Shown piece by piece: positions 5,080 to 60,434 of a stretch of 64,000 nt of DNA (position 1 is the stretch's first letter; each line of letters opens with the position of its first letter). The notes beneath the pieces are model-generated. The model did no database searches, had not been told where the DNA came from, and was given only the letters and a program-made list of their open reading frames with translations. Both the position numbers and the translations under genes were made by a program. Source of the stretch: Massalongia carnosa (lineage: Eukaryota). The stretch spans positions 496,001 through 560,000 of the forward strand of contig OZ287076.1 in the NCBI GenBank assembly GCA_965645245.1. Direction: 5' to 3'.

Positions 5080-6971
5080 ACCGTGCGGCTCACCTCCATG
5101 ACGCCATGACGCATTTCTCAAACTATTTACATTATATCCATTAATTGACCCTTTCAAAATGAAGCTATTCAAAATCAAAGGCTGACGTTCAGCTATCCAG
5201 CTTTCGGCCTTTTTACCCACCAAGCCAAACCGTTTAGCTATCGCTTTTCCATAGAGAAATATTTTTTTTGTCTAGCCGTCCCAGCACGCTTTGGACGACC
5301 CTCCTCCCTTTCCACCTCTTCTTGGGTACGATGTAGGTGATTGTGCCTCACATCTCGAACGGTAACGATTCCTCCCTTCTGAACAACGGTGCCAGCAAGC
5401 TTTTTTCGGGCCCTTTTAGCTTATGCAGCTGTATGTGTGGCTTGCAAGTCGCGTTGCGTCAATTCTAGTAAATTAGCGTTTGCAACCGACCCTTTGATAA
5501 AACGTCGCATTCTTTCTGGAGTAATTTCTTTATTATTATTCATTCGCTGAATAATGTTTTCCCCTTCCTTAGCAACATCTTTGGGCTTTTTGGGGGTATG
5601 AGGTAGGATTATTGTCTCCGAAGATGATATTGGTAGTGGTGGTAATGCCGAATTTAAAGCACGAATTTTGGTCAAGACTACCTCCGGATTGTAAGGTATC
5701 AACCCAGTTTTTTCCCAGGCTGATTTGATAGTAGATGATTTGAATGCCTTTGTACGAAATTGATTGAATGCGGCCAGAAAATCCCAGACGATTGAAGTCA
5801 ACGTCACCCCAACCGAATGGCGTTGTCAACCGCTTCAGCATGATAATGTTTCATTGGCTGAAAAACGCCAACGTCCAATGGCTGCGGCAAATGGGTTGAA
5901 TGGGGGGGTAATCTGAATAAACAAATCTTATTTTCTTTCGAATATTCCCAAAATTCATACGTTAGATGAGATCCATATCCATCCAACAAAAGAAGCCTAA
6001 ACGCTCCTTTTTGAACCTTTTTTGAATGAGCATTAAAATGCTTTAACCACTCTAATGCTAGAAAATCATTCGAATAGCCGCTATCGCTTGTAGTCAACAC
6101 GATATCATCTTTCAAATCATTCTCTAAGGCCCATTTGTGAAGTATGTTGACCCCTTTCAAAATCAAAAAGGATGGAACGCTTCCGCCAACTCCACTGATG
6201 CATTCGACCGAAGCTATATAGTCTCGATTGTCTGGATCAGCGATCATAATGCGTTTATGTGATGATAGTGTCACCACCAAATGGGTTACCCCACAGCCAA
6301 CTCGAAAGCCTGTCTCATCCATATTCCATATATCATCTGGAGTTATACCAAGAAGGGCTACAGTCGGTTGAAATGAAGAGAAATAAGTTTGAATATCCGT
6401 AACATTGTGAGCGTTTTTCCTTTCGGCTGCTAATGGCTTGCCTTTTTGCATGAAAAATTGGGGATTTCTTTTCAAGAATCGTCCGGTCCAGCATTTTCCT
6501 ACGCGGGTGAGAGAAGATGAAGACGAGGAAGGATGTTGCAATTGCAACAAATAATTAGCTGCACCGCGAATCAATGGCAATCTCATTGATAATTCAATTT
6601 CATCAAGAAATTCAATATAATCCTTCAAGGCTAGTTCTAGTGCAGCAGAGAGCCTCATATTGACTGCTTTTCGCTTGCTATATCCATGTAGTCTTATTTG
6701 AAATAGACGAGGTGAAATATCGAATTCTTTGGCACAGGCTGCGGCTGATTTGTATTTGTTCTTTGCAAATGCATCTAAGGCCTTTGCAATGTTAGCCTCT
6801 CGTTTCTTGTACGAATCAGACATGATGTGGTTGAATAGTAAATGGTTGATGATAGATGATAGAAAATTTATAAAAATGCGTCATGGAGATGATAGCGTCA
6901 TGGAGATGATAGCGTCATGGAGCACCCTGAGCGGAGCTGTCCATCGGATTTAGTTACCTCGTTCGCACGGT
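5080..6971 (-). mobile_element. pogo/Fot1-like DNA transposon (Tc1/mariner superfamily)
   Basis: Terminal inverted ACCGTGCG at 5080-5087 and CGCACGGT at 6964-6971, flanked by TA at 5078-5079 and 6972-6973. Subterminal CTCCATGACGC repeats occur at both ends, and a transposase lies inside. Confidence 0.92.
5150..6823 (-). pseudogene. Disrupted pogo/Fot1 DDE_1 transposase
   Basis: Motifs WNMDETGF, LLLLDGYGSH and PPHSTHLPQPLDVGVF. Frameshifts at about 5783-5810. In-frame TAA at 5421-5423, after which the frame continues AKRARKKLAGTVVQKGGIVTV. The 3' end is approximate. Confidence 0.9.
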
Positions 6972-12501: not shown

Positions 12502-13085
12502 CGCGCGGTCCTAAATCAGGCATACTTCGAAAATATGCTCCAGACTAACTAACCCCTCTGGCCGCGACTGAGTTTGTAGATACTGTAGACAGCGACTCTC
12601 GCCGTGGCCAGAGAGTGTCAGTCGTGAGGGTCGCATAGGATGTTCACATATCACTGCACGAAGCCGCCGAAATCACGCTGTTGGGAGCACCCCGTGATCA
12701 AGCAGAACGACAAAATCTTATGGACTGTAAATAATAACTTTTCAACGAATAATCAGCAAGAAGTTCAAACAGCAACACCGGGCCTTCACATTCCAGACGT
12801 GAAGGTAGAGAGTATCGTTACATGCACCGTGTGAAGATGGGAGATGGACGGGAAAAACATAGGCAGACGTGGCAGACTTCACTTCGACATTCCATCATTC
12901 TGGAGCTTCTCTCGCTCGACAAGGCAAGGTTCAGTGGAGATTGACGTTTTCATCATCTTCCCATAGATACAGTCTGGATCACCAACTGTGTTCATGCATA
13001 GCGTTCTGGCTTGAAGAGAAAGAAGCAAATGCGGACCGATATGTAATCCCAATGGCTCTGCGAAGCGATCAACTTTACCCGCGTC

Positions 13086-16000
13086 ATGGAGACAGCAATT
13101 CGCTGGGCACCTAGCTCTACTCCCTCCGCACAGCGTTTCCTTGTTGCCGACGTCAACGGTCGCAGCTTTAGGCATTGCCGGGTGGAAAGCTATGATGGCA
13201 AGGACCTACGCTTCGAAACCATATCGACCCACCACAAAGTCCCGGCGTTCCGCGCCTTTGACTGGTCCCCACATGATGAAGCTATTGTCGCTGTCGGTCA
13301 ATGGTCAGGCGAGGCAACGGTCCTTCGGATTGATGATAGTTCTCAGTCGCTCTCCTTGCCCATCAAACATCAGCGACTCTGCAACGCGGTAACCTTTAGC
13401 AAGACTGGACGCTTAGCTACAGGTTTGGAGAGGGTACGGAACGATTTTTGTTTGAATGTTTGGGATATCAGTCAGCGCATATCGAGTGGCTCATCGTCTG
13501 CCTCAGGGGCTGGAAGGCACTCCCTCGAGCCGATCCGCAAACTCGCAAGCTCCGAGGCCATTACCAGCATTAAATTCTTCCCTGGTCAACCAGACACTTT
13601 GGTGTGTGGCGTCAAAGGGGCATGTACACGGGTATACGATATACGAGAGAGTACCGGGAACCCATCCCTTCAATTCCAGACTTCCTGCGTCCACAACATA
13701 GCCATCGACCCCCTAGACGAAAACTACTTTGCTTCGGCGGGACCTCCTAAAGACCCAATGATACACATCTGGGACCGAAGGTTAGGTTCATCATCAACGG
13801 CGGCAAATTTAGGCTTGGGGTCCTCGCAAAGCGGTCACCATGGCCCACTCCTGGAGTTTCGAAAGGCATTCGATAGCTCCACTTCTTCCGCTCAACCAAG
13901 TATATGGAGCTTACGTTACTGCAAAGGGCAGAGCGGTTGTCTTGGAGCTCTTGGTAGCACCGGTGACTACAAAATCTTTGAGACAAGGAAGGAATATGTG
14001 CCTGAAAATGCTCGCTCCAAAGCATACCATGACCCAAACTCCGATAGACCTCTTTCGTTTGCTCAGCAGCTATTTACGAAGCAAATTCATCACGTAGAGC
14101 ATGCGTTTGACGATCTAAGACATAGACGTCCTGAAAATACGCGTATAGTCTCGTTTGATTTTACCAATCTAGCTGGATCTATGGGAAGGCCGTGTGCAAT
14201 TACGCTCCGGGGTAACCAAGCTATCAATATCTATGAGCTCAAAGGACCTCCGTCAGCTCTAAGTTTTTCACCCACAGGAGGTCTTGCACGAAGTAGAAAC
14301 TATGTCAGTAGGAGAGGGTTATCATTTAATGATGCACAGTTGAATGAACATGTGGAAACAATATATCCGCTAATAAAGTTGGATGCTGCAAGCTCGATTA
14401 AAACGGTGCATGACAAAATAAGAGCCACCCGTCCGAAACATGTACAAGAGCCTATGGCCTTCAGAGTGCAAGTTTCAGGCGAGGAGCCTGGTGTTAGTGA
14501 AAAAATACATCTGTCCAGTCGTGAAGCTCATGAGGCTTTGTATGATTATCGCTCGATCAATGGAAATCTCAGCGTTGAAGATGCTTTGCAAGTTATGAAC
14601 ACTCCTTACCGTCGTTGTACTGAGGGGTACCTGTTTGATTGTGTACGCAACATGGATATTCTGTCCGACGATCCCTGGCTGCAGGATTTGTGGAATTGGA
14701 TTGGCCGTAGGTATGACTAGCTCTTTTACAAACTTCTTGCTGACATGAATCAGGAAGTAAGGACAACGCGGAAGACGAAGGCATGATGAGTGAGGGCATA
14801 GATCTAAGCTTCATCGGTGTGTTTGGTATTTGGAACAACGATTTGGGTAAGGGATGAATTGGGCGTTTTTTCAATATCCTTTGGCTTATCTGCGCCAGGT
14901 CAACAAAAGAACGCGCGCAGGGGGAACAAAATAGGGAATGACATGGAGGTTGCCAGCGCTGTCAGCGCCTTGTGTGATAAACTTCAACTGCCCGAGTCTT
15001 CCCCACGGAAGACAGCGTATCCAAAACACCGCCAGTTATGTCTGTATACCTGTGGCATTGGTCTCTCGCAGCCGCAACTTGAGGAAACTGTCAAAGAGCT
15101 TGTTTGTAATGGCCAAAACACAAGGGCCGCCGCACTAGCTCTCATCCACGATAAACCCAAGCTTGCATTCCTTGCTTTGAGGAACGGCGCTGCCTCTCCA
15201 GCACACCGCGAGCTTTCTATCGCCCTGGCTGGCTTCGTAAAGGGGAATACGGACGATATGTGGGAAGAAACGGTACGCGAAGTAGCCAAGGAACTCGACG
15301 ACCCCTACGCGCGAGCGATCCTCGCCCTGGTAGGCTACGGCGACTGGCACGACGTCCTGGCCGAAACCTCTCTCCCGCTCCGCGACCGCGTCGGTGTCGC
15401 TCTCATGTACATAGACGACGAGGAACTTGGCCAATACATCGCCACCGTCACGGCGGAAAGCATCCAGCACGGCGACGTCGAGGGCATTGTCCTAACGGGA
15501 CTGACGGAAAAGTCCATCCCCCTCCTTCAAAACTACTCCCGGAAATTCTGCGACACGCAAACCCCGCTCCTCGCCCTCGCTCACACCTCCCCGCGTTACC
15601 TTTCCCACCCGCTAATCGATCACTGGCGCCAAGCCTACCGGTCCTTCCTCAATGCCAGCCGCCTCTTCCTCTTACGCGTCCAATTTGATGTCCAATCCAC
15701 CAAACTCTCCACCCCGTCCGGAGCCCGCCAAAAACCCCTTCTCCCCCCGCCGCCTCGACAGATCTCCCTGCGCTGCAACAATTGCGATCACGCGCTCGAC
15801 CGCAACCCGGAAAACAACCCTTCGCCTGCGCCGCAGACCCCGCCAGCCGGCCTCGCCGCTAATAACAACCACGGCTCCATCTTTGGCGATGCCCGCTCCG
15901 GCACCGTCTGCCCCCGCTGCGGCCGGCATATGCCCCGGTGCGTCATCTGCATGCTCTGGCTCGGCGTGCCGGATCCGGGGTCTAAGGGCGTAGCGGCTGC

Positions 16001-16202
16001 GGCGGCTGCGGCTAGTGGTGGTGGCCATGAGAACGACAGGAATCGGGATCCCCTCCGAGAATTCGTGGTAGTGTGCAGGGGATGCTGGCACATGAGCCAT
16101 GCGGGGCACGCGGAAGAGTGGTTCCGCGAGCATGATGTTTGCGCCGTGCCCGGGTGCGAGTGTCGGTGCGGGGAGGTTGACGCGGGGGTTGGGGGGTTGT
16201 AG
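13086..16202 (+). CDS. SEA4: SEACAT/GATOR2 subunit Sea4 (MIOS): WD40 repeats plus C-terminal Zn-ribbon/RING
   Basis: WD40 N-terminus (RLCNAVTFS..LATGLERVRNDFCLNVWD), GDVEGIVLTGL, and CPRCGRHMPRCVIC...CRGCWHMSHAGHAEEWF..HDVCAVPGCECRC. Introns 14707-14753 and 14847-14898 restore the frame. Confidence 0.92.
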
Positions 16203-55401: not shown

Positions 55402-57109
55402 ATGGCGAATGTTGCCATTAATGGCAAAAATGGCAAAGAAAGAATACCTCTGTGGTTAGATTGCGATCCAGGTACTGCCAGATGGAAGCATTATGGGAAT
55501 AGGCTAATGGCCTCCAAATATTGTCTTATAAGACCTAACATGGATAGGACACGATGTAAAAAATACCCCCCAACAACCAACCCCCCACCGTACCGATATT
55601 GACAAGCTCATGGAAAGGATGCATTCGCTATTCTCCTCGCTGCGCATCATCATTCCCTTCACCTTCTAGGTGTCAGTACCGTTCATGGTAACGCATCGCT
55701 CGAGAAAACCACGGCAAATGCTGGCAGCGTTCTTACGGCCATTGGAAAACCTGATGTGCCCGTTTATCCAGGAGCTGCGAAGCCATTTTGTAGGAAGGCT
55801 GTGCATGCCCCTGATATTCATGGTGAATCATTATCCTTCAACGTGCACAAATACCATTGACATGTTGAATGATGTCTTTAGGCGCTACTGGCATCGATGG
55901 CACCGATCTTCTGCCAAAAGCCGCTTGTCCACCCATAAGACACATCAATGCCATTGTCGCCATGCGTACGGCGCTGATGGCCCAAACTGAAGGCAAAGCC
56001 TGGCTGGTTGCAACTGGAGCCTTGACCAATGTGGCCTTGCTCTTTGTCACTTTTCCTGAAGTTGCTAGGCATATCAAGGGCTTAAGCATTATGGGAGGTG
56101 CTATTGGGGACAAATTTTCGAATGCAGCAATGGGTCATGTGCGCTCCAAGGTAGAGTGGATTGGGAATACGACAAGGTGGGCCGAGTTTAACATCTACGT
56201 AAGGATCCGTGCAATTCAATAATGAATTAGCCTTCTAACATAAGTTATGGGCTCATCATCTAGTGCGATCCTGAAGCTGCTCAAGCAGTTTTCTCTGATG
56301 TCGCTCTGGCTGCTAAGACAACTCTCATTCCGCTAGATCTTACACATCAAGTCCTAGCAACAGAATGGGTACGGAAGCGACTTCAGCGTACATCTCGTCC
56401 TCAGTTCGAGGCCAATCAGCGTTTAGCTGTGGCATCTGCACTACAACAATGGCAAAAACCACCTGATTCAGAAGGGCTGGCTGAGGGTGGACCAGCTTAT
56501 CCCAATTTGTTCCTGGACGATCAAATAATAGACGAAATCGTCAGTCAGCCTCTCGCATTTAGAGACGCAGACGATCTCCGAGCCATTCTTCCCGAAATAT
56601 GGCAGGATGTTTGGAAAGATGAATATGCTGGCAAAGTTTTTCGTGACATTCAAAAGGCAGTGGCTAATGTGGAAGACGAATCTCAAGGACCATACAAAGA
56701 CTTACCCCTTTCTGAACAAAAACTAAACATAAACCTCCGCAAAATGTTGCACGACCTTCTCATGTTCTTCGCTACCACCTACGCCGATGTTTTCGGCTTC
56801 ACCAGAGGACCGCCGCTCCATGACCCCATCGCCGTTGCCGTCCTTCTGAACGAGTCCTCCCATGAGCAACTCGAATTCGACGACAATCAAGGCGAAAGGT
56901 GGATCTTGGATGTTGTGACCGACGGCTTGCACAGCAGTAACCACGAAGAGAGAGGACAGGTGGGAAGGACCAAGGCACGAAAAGCGCTCGTGGGCGAGGG
57001 CGGCATACGCATTCCCCGAAGGCTGAACGTGCAGCGTTTCTGGGCCGTTGTGGAGGATTGCATTCAGCACGCTGAGGATGCGCTCGCGGTGCAGGCTTCC
57101 CCGTTGTGA
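55402..57109 (+). CDS. URH1: Inosine/uridine-preferring nucleoside hydrolase (Urh1-like) with a large internal insertion
   Basis: Exons 55402-55471, 55548-55555, 55618-55822, 55882-56198 and 56264-57109 give WLDCDPGHDDAFAI, STVHGN, IHGATGIDG, ATGALTN, MGG, AEFNIYCDPEAA, PLDLTHQ and GPPLHDPIAVA. Confidence 0.93.
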
Positions 57110-58071
57110 GCTTCGCCATGGTGGAATCGTTACAGTCTTTTCGATAAGCATCTTGAGGCTGATAGATGAATTTTATATACGACAATAGTGATCTTACGAT
57201 ATGACTCTGTATTGGACTGGAACAACAGTATATTACAGGATCATTTTACACCCCTTCGCCCCCCAACCTCCAACCCCCCTCTCAAAACACACAATCTCAA
57301 TCCTGCTATCCATACCTACACCCTCCTCACTACAACAAAGTTACCCCTTTTTTCCCCTTCTCATTTTTACCACCTAATCTCGCACTCCCAAGGAAAATCG
57401 CTAGCCAATTTGCCTTACCTCCTCATAGACACAGACCGAAAACACTAGGAAACCGTCACTGTGCTACACTACCTATTACTGTTATTACTGCTGCTGCTGC
57501 TGCTGCCGCTGCTAGTACTACCACCAACAAGAAACACTAACAACCAGAACCAATAAGTAAATCTCCATCTTCATTCCGGATTCATGGAGGCATAGGTGAA
57601 TAGAGGAGCGAGTGAACGAACGAACGAAGACGAATATTATAACGCAGGACTTTCTTTCGTTTTCGCTTGGTGCCAGGAGTGTGATGGTGAGTGTTGTGGT
57701 GGTGGTGGTGGTGGTGGTGAGGGTGGGCCGTGGGAGGGGAAAGGATCGAATGGGAAGGAAATTGGGAATAGGAAGGGGGAGATGGAGATGAATAAGAATT
57801 AATAAGTACGTAGATAAGAATAGATGAACGAGTTAGCGAAGAAATGGGTTGATGACTTGTAAAACTAGATAGACGACGATGACGATGATGACAATGACGA
57901 TTTATCTTGACGATACATTTTGTGTTTCGTTCCCTTTTCCCGGGTTTCTCGCACTTACCCTGGCTACCTCCTTTTTTCCGGCCCCCTTTCTCCCTCCATT
58001 TCCCCCTCCCTGCCCTCTCCCTACTCCCCCCTTCTCTCCAATAGCCCCCTCAAATCACCCTCCACCCCCCC

Positions 58072-58818
58072 TCATCTCCTCCCCTCAACCATCACAATAT
58101 GATACCCATGCGCCGTCTTCACTTCCGCCCACTTCGGCGCCACGACCGAGCTGGGCTCCAGCTCGTAGGCAACTTTCTCGAACTCGGCCGTCAGCGCGCC
58201 GCGCGTTTTCCAGCCTAGACTGCCTCCTGTTTGGAAAGGTGGAGGTGGGAAGGGGGTTAGTTGGTTGTTTTGGTTTGGCTAGGTTCTAAGGAGTTGAGGA
58301 CTGTGAAAGGGTGGGAAGATCGAACACGGGGTCTGGGTGAGCAGAAGAAGAACGAAGAAGAGCCAAATAAAATAAAAGTTCACAAACCCTGCCTAGCCTT
58401 ATCCTCCGAAAACTCCCTCGCCACCTCATCGAACTTAACGCCTTCCCGCAGCTTCGCCACCGCCTCCTCCTTTTTCGAGTGTTTCTCGCACTAAACGTTC
58501 CATCCAAATCCCCCCGGGTTTTTAAAGTTAGCCCTCCATCACCATCACAGACCAGCATTTCATGCCTCCGCTTATAACTTATGTACAGAGTAGGTAGGTA
58601 TCTTTAACTCCAACTCCTCTCAACTAAGGGAGGAAAGGTTGGGAAAGGAATGAGTGGGAAAGCAGGGGAAGAAGAAGGAAGAAATGGGTTCGTACGAGGA
58701 TATGGCGCGTGTTGATCGCTGTTGCAGGTTTAAGTTTGGAGGAGGAGTCGGGGTTGGTAGTTTTTGCGGAAGAGGATTTGGTGCCTGCTTTGCCAGCTGG
58801 TTTGGATTTGGGGGCCAT
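58072..58818 (-). CDS. PIN4: Parvulin-type peptidyl-prolyl isomerase (Par14/Pin4)
   Basis: Exons 58818-58696, 58490-58388 and 58226-58072 give a basic N-terminus then [17 protein letters not shown]...[23 protein letters not shown]...[17 protein letters not shown]. Confidence 0.95.
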
Positions 58819-59025: not shown

Positions 59026-60434
59026 CAGTGGGTGTCAAAAGTTTTTACCTAATGAGGGTAGGATTTTTAAGCGAAAATCCCCCATGTGGATGAAATTTTT
59101 TTTAGATTTCCTCCCCCAATCAACCATGGCACCATCTACTCCACCACCACAGGCCAAAAAATCCCCTGATGCTGATACTATCAGAAAAACCCGCTTTTTT
59201 CATGCTATTGATCATCGGCCGGAAAATGTCACCATCAAAGATGTCTGCGAGCAGGAGAGCATCAAGCTCGATCGAGGAAAATATTGGCTGAAGCAACGCC
59301 AGCGTCTTGAAGACGTCGCCTATCGACGACGTTCTCGTAGCGCTCGACCTAAAAAAGTGAGCACTCAGTTGATAAATCAGATGCTGAATCCACATACAAA
59401 TAGCGTTCGCGATCAGCCGTACACCGTTACAATTGGAGCACTTACATATATATGCAATGCGACGTACACTGCAAAGAGCATTCAGTACTCGCAAACCTCG
59501 TGCCGCTCGATTTAAAAAAGCGAAGGTGAAAACGCTCAGTCAGAAAAACGAGCGACTACGAGTTCTATACGGGAAAGAGCATGAAAATCATACTATTGAG
59601 AATTTCTGGTAGTACGTTCATTTCACGGATGAGGCTCATTTCGACCTGGATCAAACGTACTAAGAGCGAGTTCTTCGAGAGGAAGGCACTAGATACGAGT
59701 TAGAAAACATGCAAAAGATGCCTGACATGAAGGGAGTAAAACTGCATGTGGCCGCTTCTATTTCGTGGCATCATAAAGGGCCGCTGACGTTTTACAATGA
59801 CGAGCACGACGCGCCTGAAAATCAGGTTCACAAGCCCAGAAAACCACGCAAGTCGAAGTATGAAACGGAGCATGATCATCGTCAGCGAATAGCTGAATGG
59901 GAGGCATCTCTACCTCACGATTTAGAGATTAAATCAAAAGGCAATAGCATGACTCAAGCTTATTATACGGAGCGTCTGCTTCCCGGCTATATGACTGAAA
60001 TTCATGAATGTCGTGTTTTTCATGATCGATTTTGCATCTTTCAAGAAGATAACGATCCTAGTCACGGCACACGATCTACAGACAATATCGTACGTAGATT
60101 CAAGGCAGCTAGCTGGATTGAAACGTTGAATCATCCTCCGCAATCCCCTGATCTCAATCCAACGGAAGGGGTATGGAATATTCTGAAACAGCGAGTTAGA
60201 CGGCGACGGTGCAGCAATGTGAGAGAGTTAAAACGGGTGATTCTAGATGAATGGGACAAAATATCTATAGATGAAATTCGGGCCCGAATTAAGGAGATGC
60301 CTGATCGATGTAAGAGATTAATAGCGACGGAGGGCAAAGCAATAAAATCCGATCTATGGTAAATTCTGATGATTTTGGTGAGGTGCCTTGAAAATTTTGG
60401 TGAGGCATTAGGTAAAAACTTTTGACACCCACGT
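59026..60434 (+). mobile_element. Tc1/mariner-type DNA transposon, inactivated
   Basis: Perfect 27-bp inverted repeat GTGGGTGTCAAAAGTTTTTACCTAATG at 59028-59054 and 60406-60432. The left end begins CAGT. No clean TA duplication. Confidence 0.92.
59126..60362 (+). pseudogene. Tc1-like DDE_3 transposase pseudogene (DD38E)
   Basis: HFTDEAHF, FQEDNDPSH and PPQSPDLNPTEGVW. +1 frameshift at about 59429; in-frame TAG 59610-59612 and TAA 59661-59663. Confidence 0.9.

Follow-up and report, generated by a model that had tools for sequence, protein, structure and literature searches.

The 64,000-nucleotide (nt) stretch of the Massalongia carnosa genome analysed here (contig OZ287076.1, hereafter the window) encodes a Urh1-type nucleoside hydrolase in five exons on the plus strand, and the last of these exons contains a domain-sized insert. 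We interpret the insert as a translated, lineage-restricted insertion of about 100 residues, carried by a Urh1-type (group I) hydrolase from a lichen-type ascomycete and most likely forming a small acidic five-helix module, and give this reading a probability of roughly 0.6. The insertion is real, mildly surprising and species-specific, and its structural assignment is tentative. The two features on which the argument turns are:

Positions 56264 to 57109, plus strand: exon 5, comprising 281 codons plus TGA in a single open frame, which contains the insert and the catalytic HDP motif (residues 386-388 of the spliced frame).
Positions 56387 to 56734, plus strand: the insert stretch, 116 codons without a stop (residues 242-357), of which about 95-110 have no counterpart in relatives.

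The identity of the host enzyme is clear. Pfam IU_nuc_hydro (PF01156) matches the translation of exon 5 alone (65.7 bits versus a cut-off of 34.2, E 7.3e-18), and the best solved relative is URH1p of S. cerevisiae (PDB 8rih). The nearest database proteins, among the best 120 of 462 near-length matches, are from lichen-forming Lecanoromycetes such as Pseudocyphellaria aurata and Lasallia pustulata, and the relatives bear the name uridine nucleosidase in their source annotations. Like yeast URH1p and the group I (IU/CU) hydrolases of this family, the protein has the DXDXXXDD calcium/ribose motif and the catalytic His-Asp; for the roles of these motifs we rely on the URH1p structure paper (PMC11241417). 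Judged from its sequence, the host protein is an ordinary PF01156 member with an undamaged catalytic core, since it retains DCDPGHDD (residues 20-27), the LDLTHQ strand and HDP.

The LDLTHQ strand region and the LRKMLHDLL helix flank the insert. In the alignment to URH1p (8rih), chain positions 218 and 222 fall opposite query residues 38 and 151 respectively, so that about 110 residues are left unmatched. In a multiple alignment of 20 rows (alignment A1), the corresponding linker measures 16-45 residues in 18 of the 19 other sequences, and the closest relatives without the insert run through the insertion site without an intron. The alignment to Urh1 orthologues, a check proposed in the initial annotation of this DNA, thus finds the insert in a single sequence, P0003, which is 99% identical, comes from the same species and lies on a 30,375-nt contig that matches one of the sequencing runs considered below (run X5). 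For all but P0003, local alignments cover just 38-58% of the query, namely the part after the insert (best 120 of the 462 near-length matches). When the 116 residues were searched exhaustively with phmmer, P0003 was the sole match among 1.84 billion representatives. A Pfam scan of the insert identified no family at E<=10, and no second copy was found in the 64-kilobase (kb) window by blastn or tblastn. The gene call behind P0003 is prokaryote-style and begins inside the insert (window position 56429 onward), apparently at a GTG codon read as Met. P0003 differs from the window by Pro to Arg at 56691 and by Val to Ala in the C-terminal part.

Five database matches are longer than the query: P0123 and P0124 (Xylographa), P0125 (Psora), and P0126 and P0127 (Sordariales). 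In these the hydrolase is fused to MIOS/WD40, to ribosomal protein S3 domains or to PF07808, and the fused models are probably merged neighbouring genes. The window has a MIOS-like gene of its own (13047-16199), which is separated from the hydrolase by about 39 kb. The HRDC family PF00570 was absent from the hydrolase homologues surveyed (the best 120 of 462 near-length matches and all five longer matches), and the open-access full text searched yielded no paper joining "nucleoside hydrolase" with "HRDC". The initial annotation had placed about 116 stop-free codons where Urh1 proteins have a short linker, and the 8rih alignment and alignment A1 bear this out; these two comparisons, the phmmer search and the longer matches also agree that the insert is not a common, already annotated feature of the family. 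Within the collections searched, the insert appears to be confined to one species or to very close strains.

The insert is genuine DNA and no assembly artefact. Contigs from all four sequencing runs considered (three studies) span it, with no joint and no form lacking the insert. Three of the runs match the window exactly where they cover it; over 1811 nt, X5 departs from it by 19 substitutions and a single deletion of 1 nt. Since the introns are retained in all four, these runs appear to be genomic DNA.

Translation is suggested by the coding statistics of the stretch. Between 56388 and 56687 there are no stops in frame, versus 3-7 in each of the other five frames. In mononucleotide shuffles, a stop-free frame of 100 codons arises in 51 of 20,000 (0.26%) and in 1,007 of 300,000 (0.34%). 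Codon usage was scored with a model trained on 15 long open reading frames of the window (7,872 codons; the set includes two transposase remnants and several frames that match no Pfam family). The in-frame score of the insert is 0.113, compared with a mean of 0.117 (standard deviation 0.067) for 137 true in-frame coding pieces of 300 nt. Frame +0 scores highest of the six and, set against off-frame pieces, lies at the 99th percentile. The 1,007 stop-free shuffles (mean -0.013, standard deviation 0.036) all score lower than the insert. From these coding-like properties, we infer that the insert is probably translated in at least the main isoform.

The same region carries splice-like signals, which could define the following feature:

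Positions 56388 to 56687, plus strand: candidate in-frame intron or exitron of 300 nt, with GTACAT at its start, CTAAT at 56664-56668 (GCTAAT at 56663-56668), and AAG at its end (AG at 56686-56687).

The donor GTACAT at 56388, the branch-like GCTAAT at 56663, the AG at 56687 and the in-frame length of 300 nt are all where the initial annotation put them. A second in-frame acceptor, AG at 56674-56675, is absent from that annotation and gives an alternative of 288 nt ending at 56675. The boundaries of homology are ambiguous in this region: in tblastn, the linker of one relative (P0009) aligns to the first residues of the insert and that of another (P0050) to its last.

One reading of these letters is that the stretch is a recently gained long intron that is removed from every transcript, open in frame by chance, which would leave the usual short linker in the mature protein. 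Its removal would bring the linker to the length seen in relatives, and the signals GT...CTAAT...AG are there. The GC content of the insert (0.47) lies between the values for introns (0.36-0.49) and exons (0.42-0.58), calculated with boundaries a few bases off the final model, and base composition (GC, and GC at third codon positions, GC3) fails to separate intron from exon in this gene. The open frame itself stands against this reading, as just 0.26-0.34% of shuffles have one, and so does the in-frame codon usage, which is typical of coding sequence and is matched by none of the stop-free shuffles. The stretch is also four to five times the length of the other introns of the gene. The closest relatives read through the site, and therefore any intron there would be a recent gain; terminal repeats, a target-site duplication or a second copy in the window, as an introner-type element should have, are lacking. 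We consider a constitutive intron highly improbable.

Exitrons are protein-coding, in-frame, alternatively spliced internal regions of exons, known mainly from plants and humans. Like them, the insert is internal to a coding exon, has a candidate excision that is a multiple of three and free of stops, and shows GT...AG with a branch-like CTAAT. If the stretch were excised from some transcripts only, a long isoform and a near-canonical short one would coexist. Both excisions (288 and 300 nt) keep the frame, the two AGs follow the branch A at distances of 8 and 20 nt, and the linker left after removal of 300 nt is about as long as that of the closest relatives. The gene is also lenient in its accepted signals: three of its four donors (GTACTG, GTAAAA and GTGAAT; the fourth is GTAAGG) likewise have no G at position +5, and one of its introns likewise ends in AAG. 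Unlike described exitrons, the insert is known from DNA alone. The arrangement GT...CTRAY...AG is found at the insert, yet the loose in-frame pattern also occurs in 24 of 159 equal-length true coding pieces of the window (15%), so that the signals are no better than chance at this level; a stricter donor pattern, picked after the candidate had been seen, occurs in 3 of the 159. The candidate excisions are unlike the introns of this gene, which measure only 59-76 nt, and no joint appears in any of the four runs, all of which are DNA-like contigs. Alternative excision is improbable on this evidence.

Returning to the insert as a translated module, its sequence is not of low complexity, and it is strongly acidic (12 Lys and Arg versus 21 Asp and Glu, net charge -9, isoelectric point 4.36). 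A single-sequence AlphaFold2 model predicts five helices, with a mean predicted local distance difference test score (pLDDT) of 67.6 and a predicted template modelling score (pTM) of 0.58. The tail of the insert beyond residue 99 is disordered in this model. The same helices recur when the whole of exon 5 is modelled with alignment A1. The predicted elements are:

Positions 56396 to 56446, plus strand: predicted helix 1 (insert residues 4-20; AlphaFold2, recurring in the exon-5 model).
Positions 56447 to 56518, plus strand: low-confidence loop (insert residues 21-44; AlphaFold2, pLDDT below 50 at residues 26-28 and 30-37).
Positions 56519 to 56680, plus strand: predicted helices 2-5 (insert residues 45-53, 61-67, 70-73 and 78-98; AlphaFold2 and the exon-5 model).

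An all-against-all structural scan that is independent of Foldseek (VIA; 48,161 representative chains) returned 21 chains at Z>=5 and none at Z>=8, with matches spanning model residues of about 7-99. Judging by title or chain range, HRDC domains and the HRDC-like C-terminal domains of Rpb4/RPC9 account for 13 of the top 50 entries (Z 4.5-6.4). These C-terminal domains belong to the HRDC-like fold superfamily. The structural matches include:

7a6h_D, Z 6.4; 9mu7_D, Z 5.9; 3ayh_A, Z 5.7; 4nlc, Z 5.1; 5x4z_D, Z 4.6.
2rhf, HRDC3 of RecQ, Z 5.8, 71 residues aligned on a chain of 76, root-mean-square deviation 2.8.
1wud, HRDC of RecQ, Z 5.1, 73 residues aligned on a chain of 77.
2cpr, HRDC of EXOSC10, Z 5.8; 5vzj_J, Rrp6 residues 435-518, Z 5.7; 2hbj, Rrp6 residues 433-516, Z 5.3.
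2e1f, HRDC of WRN, Z 5.6; 1yt3, RNase D residues 209-289, Z 5.1; 1d8b, HRDC of Sgs1, Z 4.5.

Thus, in the model, the five predicted helices superpose on almost whole HRDC domains (those of RecQ, WRN, Sgs1, RNase D and Rrp6/EXOSC10, family PF00570) and on the HRDC-like domains of Rpb4/RPC9. The ESM Atlas provides a further lead, and only a lead: unnamed clusters score 0.90-0.93, and the sole Pfam-bearing cluster shown is HRDC (0.75, 108 shared features).

Several observations weigh against the interpretation of the insert as a translated and folded module. Signals resembling splice sites are present and could excise 288 or 300 nt in frame. Differences between the runs and the window fall at 1 of 300 nt in the insert, compared with 5 of 263 in the introns (Fisher p=0.10) and 13 of 1142 in the other exons (p=0.32), and are too few to show constraint. 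The confidence of the AlphaFold2 prediction is moderate, the five models scoring 67.6, 60.3, 53.2, 50.1 and 49.9, and the exon-5 model is poor (pLDDT 57.6), as a hydrolase domain cut in half does not fold by itself. A Foldseek comparison of the insert model with the PDB yielded no match at E<=0.001, and the 64 rows at E<=10 include no HRDC. In the structural scan unrelated bundles score alike (the Nab2 N-domain and PRIN2 5.8 each, GIPC GH2 5.0), and the scan's own guidance is that Z below 8, or below about 13 for helical bundles, may mean just a common arrangement. Recognition by ESM, at 2178, falls short of the 2300 attained by 91 in 100 proteins of known families. For HRDC (PF00570) there is no support by sequence from Pfam, BLASTP or hhalign.

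Of these sequence comparisons, BLASTP of the insert against the HRDC of E. coli RecQ gave just an out-of-register match with 8 identities over 27 positions. Alignment with hhalign to a profile of RecQ and RNase D HRDC domains gave a probability of 0.35%; this negative carries little weight, since the profile is narrow (effective number of sequences 1.5) and has little power. It was seeded with the HRDC domains of E. coli recQ and rnd, and contig scans added only Enterobacterales RecQ of 85-100% identity. HRDC domains have a short connection between helices 1 and 2. In contrast to them, the insert has a low-confidence loop of 24 residues at this point, is strongly acidic and shows no sequence similarity. 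The context differs as well: HRDC domains are C-terminal accessory domains of RecQ helicases or of RNase D/Rrp6 nucleases, whereas the insert is internal to a nucleoside hydrolase. We regard the chances of an HRDC-like topology as even, as two weak and partly independent methods concur, and HRDC homology or family membership as unproven. The HRDC helical pattern that the initial annotation read in the insert finds partial support as to shape, from the five-helix model, the HRDC-type structural matches and the ESM lead, and is left without support by Foldseek and by all sequence tests. The same annotation had proposed a nucleic-acid- or partner-binding module; the net charge of -9 makes direct binding of DNA or RNA unlikely.

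The position of the insert suggests how it may be accommodated. In the URH1p paper, helix alpha8 and the beta3-alpha3 loop are described as flexible in ligand-free group I enzymes and ordered upon ligand binding (PMC11241417). There, alpha8 ends at residues 242-246, His254 is catalytic and the yeast enzyme works as a monomer; the chain index of 8rih runs 3 ahead of the numbering in the paper. On the basis of the 8rih alignment and the paper, the insertion site maps immediately N-terminal of alpha8. Yeast URH1p has about 4 residues before alpha8 and other lichen fungi have 16-45, whereas the host of the insert has about 100 extra. The site, whose length varies among lichen fungi, is thus probably a surface connection, where a linker-borne domain could be tolerated without touching the catalytic motifs.

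We propose that the insert sits in the length-variable connection before the mobile alpha8, which closes over the active site. It would form a small acidic five-helix module on flexible linkers, for which an HRDC-like topology is the best available fold assignment. If the insert acts, it would be a protein-protein or regulatory appendage near alpha8; otherwise it may be a tolerated neutral expansion of the loop. Being anchored to the mobile alpha8, it could modulate closure of the active site or offer a binding surface. A far more specific version, in which a captured and diverged or de novo HRDC-fold module at the base of alpha8 gates catalysis or tethers a partner and is switched between isoforms as an exitron (56388-56675 or 56388-56687), is very improbable.

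The variability of the connection also bears on a reading in which the insert is translated as a structurally unspecific surface loop, helical or partly disordered, with neither kinship to HRDC nor function. The same loop ranges over 16-45 residues among lichen fungi, and in Agyrium, Trapelia and Villophora it is filled with low-complexity sequence. In Pfam and phmmer searches the insert behaves as an orphan, its ESM recognition is low, and unrelated bundles occur among its fold matches, which are weak. Such an expansion sits less easily with an insert sequence that is not of low complexity and that AlphaFold2 folds from a single sequence (pTM 0.58). It also sits less easily with the concentration of structural neighbours in one fold class (13 of the top 50), where 71 of 76 and 73 of 77 residues can be aligned. 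We consider a neutral, structurally unspecific expansion a serious alternative, less likely than not and yet more probable than either form of splicing.

If the insert is translated and folded, it represents a clean natural case of a young, orphan, domain-sized insertion in a well-understood enzyme, beside a helix that gates the active site. It would provide a handle on how new domains arise or are tolerated, and on whether the HRDC-type bundle occurs outside helicases and nucleases. An IU_nuc_hydro protein with an internal HRDC-like domain would, if true, be a previously undescribed architecture, and the exitron would be a rare fungal one. The present weight of the case is modest, as it concerns one species only.

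A source for the inserted sequence was sought in several ways. By sequence, no source gene is detectable among the 1.84 billion representatives searched with phmmer. Internal duplication was rejected: Smith-Waterman alignments of the insert with the remainder of the protein score 23 and 25, each versus a shuffle mean of 26.0. An intein was dropped on reading alone, the stretch being shorter than inteins generally are. Signs of a transposon or introner are lacking in the 64-kb window, where direct or inverted repeats flanking the insert are no more than chance matches of 9-11 nt, and neither a target-site duplication nor a second copy was identified.

The gene model was built by reading the sequence, by tblastn with two relatives (P0009 and P0050) and by a frame check, which gives a coding sequence of 1446 nt and 481 amino acids with one terminal stop. 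The four exons upstream of exon 5 are:

Positions 55402 to 55471, plus strand: exon 1, with the ATG at 55402, ending within the first part of the DXDXXXDD motif (tblastn with P0009 and P0050, joined frame).
Positions 55548 to 55555, plus strand: exon 2, a micro-exon of 8 nt, GACACGAT, which gives the H-D of DCDPGHDD and lies between introns of 76 and 62 nt.
Positions 55618 to 55822, plus strand: exon 3 (tblastn, frame check).
Positions 55882 to 56198, plus strand: exon 4 (tblastn, frame check).

The introns thus measure 76, 62, 59 and 65 nt in order. Only the splice pattern with the micro-exon regains the PGHDDAF of relatives, as seen in the alignment, in tblastn and in the frame check. Several database models of relatives (P0026, P0095 and P0099) show surplus or aberrant residues exactly at the micro-exon in alignment A1, which suggests that it is often mis-annotated. 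This gene carries a warning for annotation: automatic models could wrongly excise or wrongly retain the insert, and the 8-nt micro-exon seems to have been missed in several relatives. GC3 steps up sharply within exon 5, from 0.29 (residues 201-241) and 0.34 (the insert) to 0.71 (residues 358-481) right after the insert; the mean for exons 1-4 is 0.46.

The neighbouring open reading frames in the window are ordinary fungal nuclear genes. Transposon remnants are present on both sides of the hydrolase gene, namely a DDE_1 frame at 5807-6880 on the minus strand (E 1e-17) and a DDE_3 frame at 59664-60359 on the plus strand (E 2.9e-09), the latter about 2.5 kb downstream of the hydrolase; neither transposase frame resembles the insert. 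Positions 58072-58278 on the minus strand, about 1 kb downstream of the hydrolase, hold an exon of a parvulin-type peptidyl-prolyl isomerase (Pfam Rotamase, E 7.1e-09). Tracts that are C/T-rich or consist of trinucleotide repeats, such as a run of GCT near 57490-57515, lie in the interval between the hydrolase and this exon (about 57200-58050).

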